DNA of 45,497 nucleotides from a virus. The translations under genes and the position numbers were made by a program. The notes beneath the pieces were generated by a model that did not search any database, was not told the origin of the DNA, and saw only the letters and a program-made list of their open reading frames with translations. The stretch lies in the UHGV virus genome UHGV-0106598; one strand, written 5' to 3'. Position 1 is the first letter of the stretch; each line of letters begins with the position of its first letter. This document shows, in pieces, positions 11,458-18,656 of the stretch.

Positions 11458-11667
11458 ATTGACTTAGAAAAAGCCCGGGGCTATAGTTTCCGCGCAGCCG
11501 CAAAATCGGTTGCCGGGATTGCAACCCCGGATATCTAAGTGACGCATAGCCGCGTTAGCGGTTTTTTTATGCGTAAAGTACAGCTACATCTAAATTATGG
11601 TGGGCTGGGCAGGGCCATCGTAAGATGGGCCGGTTTCACTTAGGCCGGTTGTTGCAACCTTGTCCAG

Positions 11668-11710
11668 CTCACCACCCAATGATTGCAACCTGACGGTGGT
11701 GAGTTTTATC
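11668..11710 (+). terminator. Terminator/attenuator-like hairpin (CTCACCACC ... GGTGGTGAG, about 18-nt loop, then TTTTAT) just upstream of the ORF6N-like gene
   Basis: Seen in sequence: perfect 9-bp inverted repeat followed by a T-run; the same intergenic region has repeated TTGCAACC motifs. Confidence 0.45.
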
Positions 11711-11729: not shown

Positions 11730-12524
11730 ATGACAACTCAAATTTCCGCACAAACTCTTTCCCCAATCTCTCATCAAAATACGCTTGTCATCACCACCGA
11801 ATTGCTTGCACAACTGTATGGGACTGAACCAGTCCGAATTCGTCAAAACTACTCTCGTAATGAAGGGCGGTTTGTTGAAGGGAGACATTATTTTTTGGTG
11901 GAAGGCGATGAACTACGGGAGTTGAAACGCAAAGTATCTCAAAGCTACTCTGTGAAAATTGCCAAAAATGTACGTACTATCATTCTCTGGACAGAACGCG
12001 GCGCAGCTCGCCATGCCAAAATGCTGGAAACAGAACAGGCCTGGGAAGTTTTCGAAAAGCTTGAAGATTGTTATTTTAGCCAGCGTCCAGAGAGGCGGAG
12101 TACAACTACCGATTACCGTACTCCCTTACGTGATGCCGTTAATATGCTGGTCGGTAAGAAAGGCATGATGTATCCCGATGCCTACACCATGATTCACCAA
12201 CGTTTCGCCGTCTCTCACATAGAACAACTGTCACAGACGCAAATGTTAGAGGCGATTGAATACATCCACTGCCTGCTACTCGATGAAAATCAGCCAACCA
12301 TTCCAGATTTTTCTTTTATCACCACTATCAAAAATGGAAAAGTGACCGGGATGCGCCATGTTGCCAAAGGCGAACATCTGATGACCTTTGACGCTTTCAA
12401 AGAGATCGCTGAGCGGGCAGGGTATCTGGTGATCCACAGCGACAATCTGCGAAGTATGACACTGGATAAATTGATGGTAATGGGGAAAAAGTCGGCTATA
12501 TCCGTTGCTAATTCAGCATTTTGA
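11730..12524 (+). CDS. ORF6N/KilA-N-like domain protein (possible antirepressor-type regulator)
   Basis: N-terminal LVITTELLAQLYGTEPVRIRQNYSRNEGRFVEGRHYF ... ILWTERGAARHAKMLETEQAWEVFEKL resembles the recalled ORF6N pattern; own leader with a hairpin. Confidence 0.45.
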   Translation: MTTQISAQTLSPISHQNTLVITTELLAQLYGTEPVRIRQNYSRNEGRFVEGRHYFLVEGDELRELKRKVSQSYSVKIAKNVRTIILWTERGAARHAKMLETEQAWEVFEKLEDCYFSQRPERRSTTTDYRTPLRDAVNMLVGKKGMMYPDAYTMIHQRFAVSHIEQLSQTQMLEAIEYIHCLLLDENQPTIPDFSFITTIKNGKVTGMRHVAKGEHLMTFDAFKEIAERAGYLVIHSDNLRSMTLDKLMVMGKKSAISVANSAF

Positions 12525-12903
12525 CAGGTTGTTTGGGGCGGAAATACTCTATTTGCGCTTAGGATACTTGTTAGCTACTTCCACTTTTGTCACAAAGCGG
12601 ACTATCTGGCTGAGCTGAGGGTCCGCAGTGAGTGAGGATCGAATATTTAAGCGTCGGTACTGATGACGGATTTGAGGTATTTAAAATATTACAGGAGCTA
12701 GTGTGGATGTGACAGACATAAAAGTGGATGCAGTCAGAAAAGATATATGTATAGCAGGCTTCTTCGAGGACTAGATCAATCAATAAGATTTAGATAAAAT
12801 TGCAGTGTTAAATAAAAAGACTAGTAGTATTTAAACTTTAAGTGCGTTAGTAAAGTCGTGCAATTATATAAAACTAACGTTTTCTGAATGTTTGGAGAGT
12901 AAA

Positions 12904-13599
12904 ATGTTAGAACCGCCAAAGAATTATAATGAAATGTTACCCATGCTCCATAAGGCAACTTTTATTACTACATTTATATTTTACCTATCATTGGTTATTT
13001 ATGGCTACATACCATTGGTTGGCATTAATGCCAAGTACATTCCACCAATCAAAGACTACGAAGAATTTATTAAGTGGATATTAACATTCGGCATATTACC
13101 AATTGCATTCTCAATTTTTTGGTCTGTGATTAGTGGGGCTTTAGATCTACATAATAACGTGGCAAAAATTCTTGGAATAAGAAAAGCATGGGATAATTAC
13201 TTGATTGTTAAACCATTGGCGCAAGTTGCAGGCATTACAAGAAAATTAACTAGTGATGAATCCTCCAAAGTAATGAACAAACTGTATTACCCAGAAGTTA
13301 ATGAGTTAAAAGATAAACATTATGTTGAGCTCTTCTGGAATAAGGTTTATTACTTTTGGGTTTTCTTTGAACATACTGTGATTGCATTTATTACTGTTTT
13401 AGTAATAAGTTTTGCTAAAATAACCCATTTACTCTCTGTAACCGGTTCTTTAAAAAATCTTTGGTTGTGGGTTATTTTTATTGTTGTCTTTAATTTTCTT
13501 ATTTTTATTGCATCCGTTAAACCCAGAACTGAAGGCCAAGTCAGACAAATACCTGATGATAAGATAAAGGAATTTTTTAATAATAACAGTATTTTTTAA
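12904..13599 (+). CDS. Integral membrane protein (about 4 predicted transmembrane helices), unknown function
   Basis: GGAGAG ribosome-binding site before the ATG at 12904 (track ORF starts at an upstream non-ATG codon); four long hydrophobic segments; AT-rich codon usage; stop adjacent to the next gene's ATG. Confidence 0.5.
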   Translation: MLEPPKNYNEMLPMLHKATFITTFIFYLSLVIYGYIPLVGINAKYIPPIKDYEEFIKWILTFGILPIAFSIFWSVISGALDLHNNVAKILGIRKAWDNYLIVKPLAQVAGITRKLTSDESSKVMNKLYYPEVNELKDKHYVELFWNKVYYFWVFFEHTVIAFITVLVISFAKITHLLSVTGSLKNLWLWVIFIVVFNFLIFIASVKPRTEGQVRQIPDDKIKEFFNNNSIF

Positions 13600-14265
13600 A
13601 TGAGGTTAGTTTTGAATTACAAAATAAATGGAATGACTATACGTTCAGAAAATGCAGCAAAACCGCATACTATGCCATCTAACTATCTCTGTAACCATAT
13701 TGAAAATTCTGTTAAAAATGGCATGGCCCTTGATTTCGGATGTGGAAAGCTTAGATATTCAGAACAATTAGTAAATAAATTTGAAGCTGTGACATTTTTA
13801 GATTCCAGAAAACAGTTAGAAAGAGTGCAAATTATCAGAGGCGTACAAACCACAATTCCAGAGTATGTGGCTAATAATTATAAAAATGCTAATGTTGTCC
13901 CTTTTGAAAGTATAGATAAAATAAAAGATAATTATGATTTCATACTTTGCGCAAACGTGCTTTCCGCAATTCCATGCAAATCAACAATTTACAAAATCAT
14001 CAATGAGATTGGGAGATTATTAAAAAATGATGGTGAAGCAATTATTGTTAATCAATACAAAAGCTCTTATTTCAAAAAGTATGAGACTGGAATTAAACAT
14101 TTGCATGGATATATATACCAAAACTCTCGCAATGCTTTCTATTATGGCTTATTGGATGAGAATATTGTAAGTAAAATTTGCTTAGATAACAATTTAGCAG
14201 TAATAAAGTCATGGAGCAAAGCTGGCAGTTCATATGTGGTTGTTGGTAAAAATAAACATAATTAG
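13600..14265 (+). CDS. Class I SAM-dependent methyltransferase-like protein (small-molecule/RNA/protein type, not a typical DNA methyltransferase)
   Basis: Motif I LDFGCGKL, acidic residue about 17 aa later (FLDS), motif DFILCANVLSAIP; no DPPY/NPPY-type DNA methyltransferase motif seen. Confidence 0.5.
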   Translation: MRLVLNYKINGMTIRSENAAKPHTMPSNYLCNHIENSVKNGMALDFGCGKLRYSEQLVNKFEAVTFLDSRKQLERVQIIRGVQTTIPEYVANNYKNANVVPFESIDKIKDNYDFILCANVLSAIPCKSTIYKIINEIGRLLKNDGEAIIVNQYKSSYFKKYETGIKHLHGYIYQNSRNAFYYGLLDENIVSKICLDNNLAVIKSWSKAGSSYVVVGKNKHN

Positions 14266-14592: not shown

Positions 14593-15492
14593 TTATAATT
14601 CAACAATTTTTAGTATTATATCAATATTATTTAGCCTTGCAATCTCTGATGAATCGTTTGCAATTTTATCTTTTAAATTATCAATGTTAATCATATCTTC
14701 AGAGCTAATACAAACCATATCACCTTGGTTAACTTTTGATTTGTTCACTATGGCTTGAATAACAGACAGATCGTCCATTACACCTCTCAGGAATTTAACC
14801 ATGCTTTGATCCTTGAAATCAGATATCGATTTTGAACGTTGCTTACGTTGGATTGTTCCTTTTGTAATTATTTCGTTAATTTCTTTTAAACCGGCAAGCA
14901 TATCAGATATGCTTCCTTCGCAACTCATCCTGTGTTTAATAGCATTGCGATTAATAACATTGAGTATTATTTCGAGTGAATCTCTATCATCCCATGGCGA
15001 TAATAATGTATAATCCTGATGGCGATGAATGGCATCAAGCATATCAAGGATCATATTTTCATCTGCTTTATCGCAAAGTTCATTTACAAAATAGCTGGGG
15101 TCGATTACTTTACAATAACTTGGAACTGAGCATTTTGAGCTTTTACAAAACCCAAAAATATATAAAAAAGGGTATATGTCTTTTAGACTCTTTCCTGATT
15201 TATTTTCTTTTTCAAAGGCTGCGATTGTTTTTTTAATTTTTGCCGGGGTTGCTTTCGTTGTAACTTGAACTGCTATCATGTTTTTATTGTCAGCTAAATC
15301 AATGGCGGGAAAGTTAACTTTAATCTGATTCATGTTTTCCAGTCCCCCCATTTTCAGTGCGCGAAACATATAAATGGTCAATGACTCAATCATTCTTTCC
15401 ATGTCATGAAAGCCAGTCTGTTTGCGTTGTTCGATATAAAGCTGAAGTAGCGCAATATCTTTCTGTAAGTTACTAATAACTGGGGCAATCAT
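14593..15492 (-). CDS. Hypothetical protein with an Rx4H (HEPN-like) motif; candidate abortive-infection-type RNase
   Basis: 299-aa ORF with AAGGA ribosome-binding site; RNAIKH at residues 182-187; N-terminal NFPAIDLADNKNMIAVQVTT region resembles what I recall of SMEK-type N-terminal domains (tentative). Confidence 0.45.
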   Translation of the reverse strand: MIAPVISNLQKDIALLQLYIEQRKQTGFHDMERMIESLTIYMFRALKMGGLENMNQIKVNFPAIDLADNKNMIAVQVTTKATPAKIKKTIAAFEKENKSGKSLKDIYPFLYIFGFCKSSKCSVPSYCKVIDPSYFVNELCDKADENMILDMLDAIHRHQDYTLLSPWDDRDSLEIILNVINRNAIKHRMSCEGSISDMLAGLKEINEIITKGTIQRKQRSKSISDFKDQSMVKFLRGVMDDLSVIQAIVNKSKVNQGDMVCISSEDMINIDNLKDKIANDSSEIARLNNIDIILKIVEL

Positions 15493-16025
15493 AGCTAATA
15501 ATCCTTTTCAATTAAGTAGGGGATGTGTTTGAGCTTCTTTATTTGACTGTTAGTTTAATTTCTTGTTTTCATATTAACAAGCTCTACAATTTTATCAAGA
15601 TTTCTCAAAAACTAATCCTCCGTGTAAATCCACTAACTATGCTGAATTTATTCCGCTGTAAAACATGTCCGCTCATGGCTGTGAGTTCAACGGGTCGATG
15701 CAACGCCATCCACTCAGTAAAATTGTGTAATTCCAGTGAGCAGGCGAATCTTCAGTATGCTCTAGTTTCTTACTCACACCTGCTTATGCTTTAACTAGGT
15801 ACAATGTAGATAAACTCTCATGTTGATTTATCGCCATGATCACATTTCCGGAAGAAAAATTTTGTTTGTAACCTTGCTAGATGAGACAGTATAGATATCA
15901 TTACATATGAAACAGTACATTAGGGAACACTGAAGGCCGTAACTTTAAAAAATATAATTAATTGTACATAATTTTATAACAATCAAGATGGTGGCAATTA
16001 TATAAGTAATAATAAGGGGTGATTA

Positions 16026-17378
16026 ATGATTAAATTCACAGAAAAGGAAATACAAAATTACATATGGGAAAATAGGAACAATTTTCCCGAACTGCTTATT
16101 GAACCTGCAGGTCTTGAAGTACTTGAATTCAACGAAGATCTCTCTGATGTAACAGCACAACTGCTAATAAAAAACAGAATAAATAGTAAACTATCCAATC
16201 TTCACTCTAAGCTTTATGGACTGGAATTTATCGGCTGCGAAGTTCCTTTAGAACAAAATTCAAACTCAACAATTAGAGCCGATTTTTTGGCTATATTCTG
16301 TGATGATACTGGGCTTGCTGTCATAGAGCTTAAAAAAAGTGAACAAACTGAAAGGCAAGCATTCACTGAATTGTTAGCATATTCAAACCATATGACAACA
16401 TTATTTCCATCCATGACGAAAAATGACAGTGTGTATATTTTAATATCACCAATGGAAACCAGAATAGCACGTGATGCTGTCATCCAAAGTTTAATATTTG
16501 ACAATAGGGATATCATTGCTTTAATTCCAACATTCTCTGATCCTCTTGATATTACCTCTCTTAAACTTGAATTATGGATTCCAGACCAAACAGAGTTAGC
16601 GACTTTCTCAAATATTGCATTTAGAGAAGATAATTTTAGTGTCTGTAAATTATCCTGGGAGTATGACGCAGAGCGATGGGATGCAGCTAGAGGAGAAGAA
16701 CTTTTACATTCATTTGTTAGTCAATTTGATAACATTTCCTGCCTTGCAGCTCAGTATATGGAAGAATCTGGAGTTCATGGTTTTACTTATTGCTCTCAGT
16801 TATGGCCTGAATTATCTCAGGCATTACCTTTTACGAATTCATTAGTACTAGTTGGCATGAATCCTTATGCTGTCGGGAGTGTCCAGCATTTATCCACAGA
16901 AGACGACAACTATGATGATATTCCAGACCCAAATTCTTACACTCCTCACATATCTGAATTAATTGGTAAACTAGGTGAAGGAGAACTATATGAGGCTAAT
17001 ATTGATGTCCTAAGTGGTTTACATTGTACATGGATCTCTCAATTATATCGTATAGGTAAGCAGGTAATTGAACTCACCACTAGAAATACAGATGGGAAAT
17101 ACGTCCACGTTGAATATGGCTTTATGAATTGGGAAATCTATCAAAGGTCTCTACTTGAGGATGTTTTCTGTAATAACTTCGCTATTAGGTCTACAGGTTT
17201 AATACGACATCTCTATACTGACATTCTTAAATTAGATTATGATTTTTGTAAGAATAACGGATTGGAAAACCACCCTCTTCATGGAGACATGCCATACTTA
17301 GGCGTCAATTTCCTTAAATCCCACCAGCACTTTAGAAAATTTATTTTGCGAATGTTCTATGCCGAAATAGATGCGTAG
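16026..17378 (+). CDS. Hypothetical protein with N-terminal PD-(D/E)xK-like nuclease motif and about 340-aa C-terminal region of unknown function
   Basis: 450-aa ORF with AAGGGGTGA ribosome-binding site; E72 ... D86 ... E101-L-K103 in IRADFLAIFCDDTGLAVIELKK fits the restriction-endonuclease-like fold motif. Confidence 0.4.
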   Translation: MIKFTEKEIQNYIWENRNNFPELLIEPAGLEVLEFNEDLSDVTAQLLIKNRINSKLSNLHSKLYGLEFIGCEVPLEQNSNSTIRADFLAIFCDDTGLAVIELKKSEQTERQAFTELLAYSNHMTTLFPSMTKNDSVYILISPMETRIARDAVIQSLIFDNRDIIALIPTFSDPLDITSLKLELWIPDQTELATFSNIAFREDNFSVCKLSWEYDAERWDAARGEELLHSFVSQFDNISCLAAQYMEESGVHGFTYCSQLWPELSQALPFTNSLVLVGMNPYAVGSVQHLSTEDDNYDDIPDPNSYTPHISELIGKLGEGELYEANIDVLSGLHCTWISQLYRIGKQVIELTTRNTDGKYVHVEYGFMNWEIYQRSLLEDVFCNNFAIRSTGLIRHLYTDILKLDYDFCKNNGLENHPLHGDMPYLGVNFLKSHQHFRKFILRMFYAEIDA

Positions 17379-18107: not shown

Positions 18108-18656
18108 ATGTCGGAAGTGAGTATCGTAGAAGACGACCCACGGCCAGTAGTCGCCGAATTGGCAGATCTGTTACAAGCACGACCATTTCATCAGAATCAA
18201 TATGATAACTTATGTCGCTTTATGATTTATTTTTCCTTGGCTGAATCAAAATTAACATCAATGGCTGCTGGCCTTGGTGGAACTGACGCACTGGCACAGG
18301 AACTAGTTGTGCATAACGGTATGGACAGTCAGGCCATAGATGATTGCTATCGTTATTTTATACGACGCTATCGAGACAGCCCTGATAGCGATTACCGCTT
18401 CAATAAACTAGCCCCACCTGAGTATGTTAAGAATGCAATCAGAGGACGCTTTGTTACGCTACTTCAGATACAGTCTCCAACAATTGAAGATAAAATCAGC
18501 TTTGTGTTCAAAGTGATTTTTAGGTTACGGCATAATCTTTTCCATGGAGAAAAATGGTCTTACAACCTTGAAGACCAGGAAGCTAATTTTTCACATGCTA
18601 ACAATGTACTACTATCCTGTTTGACTCTTACTCGCGGGAATATGTGGCACCCTTGA
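18108..18656 (+). CDS. Hypothetical protein with Rx4H motif (possible HEPN-like)
   Basis: 182-aa ORF with strong AAGGGAG ribosome-binding site; RHNLFH at residues 141-146. Confidence 0.4.
   Translation: MSEVSIVEDDPRPVVAELADLLQARPFHQNQYDNLCRFMIYFSLAESKLTSMAAGLGGTDALAQELVVHNGMDSQAIDDCYRYFIRRYRDSPDSDYRFNKLAPPEYVKNAIRGRFVTLLQIQSPTIEDKISFVFKVIFRLRHNLFHGEKWSYNLEDQEANFSHANNVLLSCLTLTRGNMWHP

Follow-up and report, generated by a model that had tools for sequence, protein, structure and literature searches.

Does the RNAIKH motif in the second half of a solitary 299-aa prophage protein mark an RNase of the HEPN type, as was first proposed from the letters of the DNA, or does the protein belong to another class of defence gene? 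The gene in question lies at positions 14593–15492 (minus strand) of the viral genome UHGV-0106598, whose whole 45,497-nt stretch was analysed here and is referred to as the window. It is a complete open reading frame with an ATG start, and its sequence is identical to the CDS WP_097478789.1 of Escherichia coli EC28. The EC28 annotation within this 100% DNA match reads ‘SMEK domain-containing protein’, a RefSeq label that already exists for the 299-aa protein. Neither the full protein nor its C-terminal domain was covered by any Pfam or PADLOC model, PADLOC models for known single-gene systems gave no match to the protein, and our literature search found no paper on the solitary SMEK-fusion family. 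When compared with five alleles, dN/dS ranged from 0.14 to 0.39 in both halves of the gene, demonstrating that the gene is real and that both domains are under purifying selection.

The SMEK gene sits in a 6.3-kb island of low GC content (31–35%, versus 47.2% for the whole window), which is 100% identical to DNA of E. coli EC28 and three other complete genomes. The EC28 prophage carrying this island is integrated next to a tRNA-Gly/Cys/Leu cluster, near pgsA. The island is flanked by replication genes and an ORF6N antirepressor on one side and by the Q antiterminator/lysis region on the other, and prophages typically carry their cargo genes in this replication-to-Q interval. The antirepressor gene (11730–12524) is located directly downstream of two RNAs on the plus strand, the Hfq-binding sRNA isrK (11494–11568; Rfam, 76 bits) and a C4 antisense RNA (11593–11679; Rfam, 78 bits), a layout that resembles P1/P7-type antisense immunity. 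The EC28 portal gene (locus L001, 35463–37037) is a RefSeq pseudogene with an internal stop, suggesting that the island may reside in a defective prophage.

Other genes lie close to the SMEK gene in the window. A membrane protein gene (12892–13599, plus strand) is followed by a gene for a class I SAM-dependent methyltransferase (13600–14265, plus strand), whose start abuts the stop of the first; together they share 68% nucleotide identity with ymfE-ymfD of the K-12 e14 prophage. In e14, this pair is divergent from the gene for the Lit abortive-infection protease. The methyltransferase also gave a weak match to the PADLOC model mad2 (E = 7e-4). On the other side, a 450-aa ORF (16026–17378, plus strand) is divergent from the SMEK gene across a spacer of 533 bp (15493–16025) with a GC content of 33.8%, an AT-rich arrangement already described in the original prediction. 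The 450-aa protein had weak PD-(D/E)xK-type matches (Pfam HSDR_N, E = 0.0027; PADLOC REase_II, E = 0.0022) and matched phrog_30092 (E = 4.8e-11). In the E. coli genomes that we examined, this protein was found together with the SMEK gene only in the five with near-identical islands and is therefore not a conserved partner. Finally, a 182-aa ORF (18108–18656, plus strand; PHROG 27260 match) represents a small enterobacterial family of 10 clusters. A further Rx4H motif is found here, in the stretch RLRHNLFHGEKW, which is invariant in this family. The 182-aa protein had no match in Pfam, NCBIfam or PADLOC, its hhalign probability against HepT was 0.15%, and it may be a separate HEPN-like candidate.

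The N-terminal SMEK nuclease domain

Residues 1–130 (15103–15492, minus strand) form a SMEK/Mrr-like PD-(D/E)xK nuclease domain, a predicted DNase effector. The SMEK domain has been described as a Mrr-like PD-(D/E)xK nuclease that acts as the effector of clade S2B short-Argonaute systems (PMC10810196; bioRxiv 10.1101/2023.06.08.544223; PMC12205087) and is carried by some short Lamassu LmuA proteins (PMC12663957), making it a swappable effector in the view of these four studies. The N-terminal ~120 aa scored 81.2 bits (E = 8.6e-23) against the Pfam model SMEK_N (PF21941, cut-off 27 bits), the 299-aa protein scored 106.9 bits against NCBIfam NF033859 (cut-off 30 bits), and the PADLOC model for Argonaute-associated REases also matched (E = 1.5e-19). 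Among solved structures, the Mrr domain of the Kordia jejudonensis Mrr-APAZ pAgo (PDB 26bh_D) was matched with E = 3.6e-12 using profile A1 and with E = 2.6e-31 using the broader profile A3. An alpha/beta restriction-endonuclease-like fold was found for the domain, and its nearest structural relatives include restriction nucleases. These profile and structure matches place the 299-aa protein within the SMEK/Mrr-like nuclease domain family and bear out the earlier impression that its first 110 aa are SMEK-like.

The catalytic core occupies the stretch E36–K85 (15238–15387, minus strand; coordinates verified by translation) and comprises E36, N55, N60-F-P-A-I-D65, D68, Q76-V-T78 and K85. E36, N55, D65, Q76 and K85 were invariant in all 51 cluster representatives and T78 was present in 49/51. 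The same columns were kept in 43–44 of 45 aligned rows, made up of the 299-aa protein and 44 SMEK proteins of other architectures; the latter were mostly SMEK-APAZ proteins of ~500 aa, including that of Kordia, with some of 1,100–1,300 aa. Within the conserved polar core, the glutamate is placed on helix 1, the aspartate on strand 2, the Q-x-T motif on strand 3 and the lysine on the next helix. Given that strand 3 carries Q-x-T and not (D/E)-x-K, catalysis would depend on K85 of the following helix. Judged from sequence conservation, the SMEK module looks intact and is a predicted DNase.

The C-terminal domain and the RNAIKH motif

The remainder of the protein, residues 131–299 (14596–15102, minus strand), was modelled by AF2 as an all-helical domain of six helices (pLDDT 82). 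A profile of this domain matched 84 clusters among 1.84 billion representative proteins. Matching clusters of ~290–320 aa carried the domain at approximately residues 130–300, the remaining ones were shorter, apparently partial sequences, and SMEK_N was present in all 51 representatives tested. Across these clusters, the domain thus occurs only as a fusion to SMEK_N. No Pfam or NCBIfam model matched residues 131–299, PDB sequence searches returned nothing beyond designed coiled coils, and a Foldseek search against the PDB returned nothing below E = 0.1, with generic four-helix bundles as the only fold matches. This helical-bundle domain is previously undescribed.

Several candidate relationships of the C-terminal domain were rejected. 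No relation was found to APAZ or to other SMEK-fused modules, and the C-terminal profile scored ~0 bits on 42 SMEK proteins of other architectures (mostly of the ~500-aa SMEK-APAZ type). The neighbouring 182-aa Rx4H protein was likewise unrelated (hhalign 0.2%). The stretch ‘HP[YW]xD’ weakly matched a Fic-domain protein (E = 0.46), but the match was spurious: conservation of the matching residues H165 and P166 does not extend across the family, position 165 is a serine (S165) in the window protein, and there is no counterpart of the GNGR part of the Fic motif.

The 299-aa protein combines a basic nuclease domain with an acidic C-terminal domain (pI 4.9, net charge −8), a division that in the family is merely a tendency, with a negative net charge of the C-terminal domain in 34/51 relatives. 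This composition bears on whether the protein could be a small restriction endonuclease, either modification-dependent (type IV) or otherwise sequence-directed, in which the SMEK/Mrr domain cuts and the C-terminal domain recognises DNA, with neither sensing nor suicide involved. Nucleases of the Mrr family are classic examples of type IV enzymes, and genes of this kind do occur on prophages, for example mcrA on e14. The restriction nucleases among the nearest structural relatives are consistent with such an enzyme, as is a conserved basic loop, G212-x8-K221, within ‘KGTIQRKQRSKS’, which could contact phosphate. However, the acidity of the domain and of its counterparts in two-thirds of the relatives argues against DNA recognition, no winged helix, SRA domain or other known DNA-binding fold was matched, and in known Mrr-type enzymes the recognition domain is generally N-terminal to the nuclease. 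We consider a restriction enzyme of this kind unlikely.

The RNAIKH motif (R182–H187; 14932–14949, minus strand) is the sole Rx4H of the 299-aa protein, and translation confirmed its reported location at residues 182–187. An Rx4H arose in 14% of shuffles of the protein and an R[NDH]x3H in 2.3%, making the presence of an Rx4H weak evidence when taken alone. Conservation raises the motif above chance, as R182, A184 and H187 were invariant in 35 homologues with identities down to 42%. In the wider set of 51 representatives, position 187 was occupied by H in 35, D in 13, and N, C or Q in one each; the 16 replacements were spread over several lineages, and no columns co-varying with the H/D state were found. 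The pattern conserved in the family is therefore not Rx4H, it is the signature [DN]181-R182-x-A184-[ILVF]-x-[H/D]187-x4-E192-G193 (14914–14952, minus strand), in which column counts gave R182 in 49/51, A184 in 51/51, E192 in 50/51, G193 in 47/51 and H187 in 35/51. In the model, this signature is located at the connection between helix 169–180/182 and helix 195–210, with R182 ending the former and H187 in an irregular connector ahead of the latter.

These observations allow the original prediction of an RNase to be weighed. A divergent HEPN protein would use R182 and H187 as a metal-independent RNA-cleavage site, probably across a dimer, and would be an RNA-targeting abortive-infection toxin, with or without SMEK activity. 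RNAIKH fits the canonical R-[NDH]-x3-H and is invariant in the homologues of at least 42% identity, the domain is all-helical, and three helices precede the motif, followed by a short irregular segment, which a kinked HEPN helix 4 could accommodate, and then a long helix. The defence-island context is also in keeping with such a toxin. Against this, no HEPN family of Pfam matched in the 35 closer members (E ≤ 1) or in the 51 more distant ones (E ≤ 10). When the C-terminal profile was compared by hhalign with the HepT/DUF86 alignment, whose members were pre-annotated as PF01934 and which was the sole HEPN family compared profile-to-profile, the probability was 2.3% and the aligned stretch contained neither of the two Rx4H motifs. 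Furthermore, a catalytic HEPN histidine is not expected to be lost in a third of the clusters while the nuclease residues are invariant. As far as these tools can tell, no HEPN fold is predicted, an outcome that had been named beforehand as counting against the RNase assignment, which has thus found no support. HEPN is itself a four-helix bundle. Given this, and the single family compared profile-to-profile, HEPN identity of the C-terminal domain is unsupported rather than disproved, and we regard an RNase of this type as rather improbable. More generally, a conserved R-x4-H in a helical domain is insufficient for annotating a protein as a HEPN RNase.

Distribution, upstream DNA and genomic neighbours

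The SMEK gene was detected in 152/5,426 complete E. coli genomes. Its location was chromosomal in every case, and a set of 50,697 sequenced phage records contained no copy. In E. coli it occurred in lambdoid prophages, between the replication and Q/nin regions and in either orientation. We also inspected a set of 25 loci spanning Gamma- and Betaproteobacteria, Campylobacterota, Verrucomicrobiota and Planctomycetota. An all-against-all comparison of flanking ORFs of at least 80 aa across the 25 loci revealed no recurrent neighbour except the ymfED-like pair, at two related E. coli prophage loci. Small ORFs conserved near the SMEK gene were likewise confined to groups of closely related loci, and a conserved adjacent antitoxin gene was not found.

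The gene has an upstream region of its own (15493–15680, minus strand), as seen from conservation across homologues and a promoter scan. These ~190 nt were 66–77% identical to the DNA preceding homologues in unrelated settings, which included Pectobacterium, an Enterobacter island, a Pantoea P4-type satellite and a Qin-like prophage. Conserved blocks include TTAGTGGATTTGCA and CTTGATGATATTGTAAAGCTT. A Shine-Dalgarno-like AAAGGAT ends 8 nt ahead of the ATG, and a consensus promoter scan located a promoter-like TTGATA-16-TAATAT with a TG extension at 15598–15571, in a promoter/terminator scan that performed near background. Nothing was found by Rfam in or near the SMEK gene, and no family reached its gathering score in the 533-bp spacer. 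This stretch of upstream DNA travels with the SMEK gene between unrelated contexts.

Defence genes located no more than three genes away from the SMEK gene included Lamassu, DUF4297-HerA, Septu PtuA, a CBASS cyclase with a 4TM effector, PDC-M01, reverse transcriptases (PADLOC RT_IV and RT_V), PARIS AriA and Mrr_cat nucleases. Other neighbours were Gabija (an OLD-family TOPRIM protein with a UvrD helicase) and SymE toxins, alongside mobile-element genes such as integrases, resolvases and a P4-type satellite primase. The LmuA and LmuB models had two matches each among 128 neighbouring proteins (23 loci). Its solitary occurrence, its own upstream DNA and its defence and mobile-element neighbours together point to a self-contained cargo gene living in defence islands.

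One local exception was observed in Pseudomonas (GCA_045277175.1; locus L003, 6001–9736), where, downstream of a SMEK homologue of 65% identity and in the same direction, lie genes for a 219-aa protein without a Pfam match, a SLATT_5 membrane effector and a 309-aa protein. This arrangement was present on three contigs and was not seen elsewhere, and may be a lineage-specific association. No homology was found between the Pseudomonas 219-aa and SLATT_5 proteins and the methyltransferase and membrane protein of E. coli.

The range of contexts is also relevant to the question of whether the nuclease domain is catalytically dead, or whether the protein serves the mobile element in a non-defence role such as regulation, recombination or replication. 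Homologues are labelled ‘regulator’ in some database records, the core motif is Q-x-T and not E-x-K, and the Kordia relative was reported as a weak nuclease only (PMC12205087). However, E36, N55, D65, Q76 and K85 were strictly invariant across more than 90 SMEK proteins, and strict invariance of polar residues indicates chemistry rather than scaffolding. Furthermore, the gene occurs in elements as varied as lambdoid prophages, a P4-type satellite and integrase islands, with no fixed position in a life-cycle module. A dead nuclease or a non-defence function therefore has, in our judgement, a slim chance of being correct.

In most SMEK-bearing E. coli genomes the membrane-protein and methyltransferase pair adjoins the gene, and pairs of the ymfED type were found in 434/5,426 E. 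coli genomes. The three genes form a 2.9-kb block common to ~146 E. coli genomes at ~84% identity and to five more at 99–100%, inserted in lambdoid prophages in either orientation, which might point to an obligate three-gene system of the SMEK protein with the membrane protein and methyltransferase (12892–14265). Such a system is very improbable. In 283 E. coli genomes the ymfE-ymfD-homologous pair is present with no SMEK gene, and conversely the pair is missing beside the SMEK gene in E. coli EC05, Enterobacter, Pantoea, Pseudomonas, Xanthomonas and others. Moreover, the SMEK gene is oriented convergently to the pair and is preceded by conserved upstream DNA of its own.

A candidate single-gene defence protein and its relation to known systems

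The interpretation that we favour, on balance, is that this two-domain protein is prophage cargo (a ‘moron’) acting as a single-gene anti-phage or abortive-infection nuclease with a C-terminal regulator. The C-terminal bundle would take the role played elsewhere by APAZ/pAgo or by the LmuA C-terminus and LmuBC, keeping the SMEK nuclease inactive until an infection cue is sensed. The cue would then release the nuclease, most likely through oligomerisation, as in SPARDA and Lamassu, for whose effectors oligomerisation has been reported (PMC12205087; PMC12663957), and the activated SMEK domain would cut DNA. The patch formed by R182, A184, H or D at 187 and E192-G193, including RNAIKH, would most likely be a contact site for a ligand, a partner or the other domain. 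We infer this sensor or regulator role for the C-terminal domain by analogy and from its generic bundle matches. A more specific version, which we advance tentatively as possible, is a new single-gene anti-phage system in which the SMEK nuclease is controlled in cis by an undescribed four-helix-bundle sensor, and in which the signature binds a phage-derived or infection-induced ligand or forms a second, non-HEPN catalytic site. If this were true, a SMEK effector would work without Argonaute or SMC-type sensors.

The closest point of comparison is the Kordia KjAgo SMEK-APAZ protein (clade S2B, SPARDA-type), with which the 299-aa protein shares a homologous N-terminal SMEK domain (PDB 26bh_D, E = 2.6e-31), the NFPAID...QVT...K signature and the general plan of an N-terminal SMEK followed by a non-catalytic module. 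In contrast to SMEK-APAZ, it has 299 aa and not ~500 aa, and it lacks APAZ, as comparison of its C-terminal domain with the APAZ region of 34 proteins by hhalign gave a probability of 0.9%. Unlike short-pAgo systems, it also has no conserved Argonaute partner across the 25 loci, and none is annotated near the E. coli gene.

Similarity to LmuA of short Lamassu lies in the exchangeable N-terminal SMEK effector (PMC12663957), and some homologues adjoin Lamassu operons. However, the one adjacent operon that was inspected was complete, with its own LmuA-like gene, and neither an LmuB nor an LmuC partner was conserved beside the solitary SMEK-fusion family at the 25 loci. No ABC-3C CTD Pfam family was present among the listed matches for the C-terminal domain, a further difference from LmuA. 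Compared with Mrr and type IV restriction endonucleases (Mrr_cat), the nuclease is N-terminal and is accompanied by no known DNA-recognition domain, and T78 takes the place of the strand-3 lysine of the PD-(D/E)xK motif, while the next helix carries the conserved K85. With HEPN RNases such as HepT/DUF86 and Abi-type toxins, the protein shares R-N-x3-H in an all-helical domain and a defence context, but it differs in having no profile similarity, no fold match and a histidine that is not kept family-wide.

Until now, SMEK has been known solely as an effector module plugged into multi-protein systems, the short Argonautes and Lamassu. A compact SMEK protein of 299 aa, spreading by itself on prophages, satellites and islands, would offer a minimal model of the silencing and activation of such a nuclease. 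It would also add a candidate to the repertoire of single-gene defence and give its C-terminal domain a first function.
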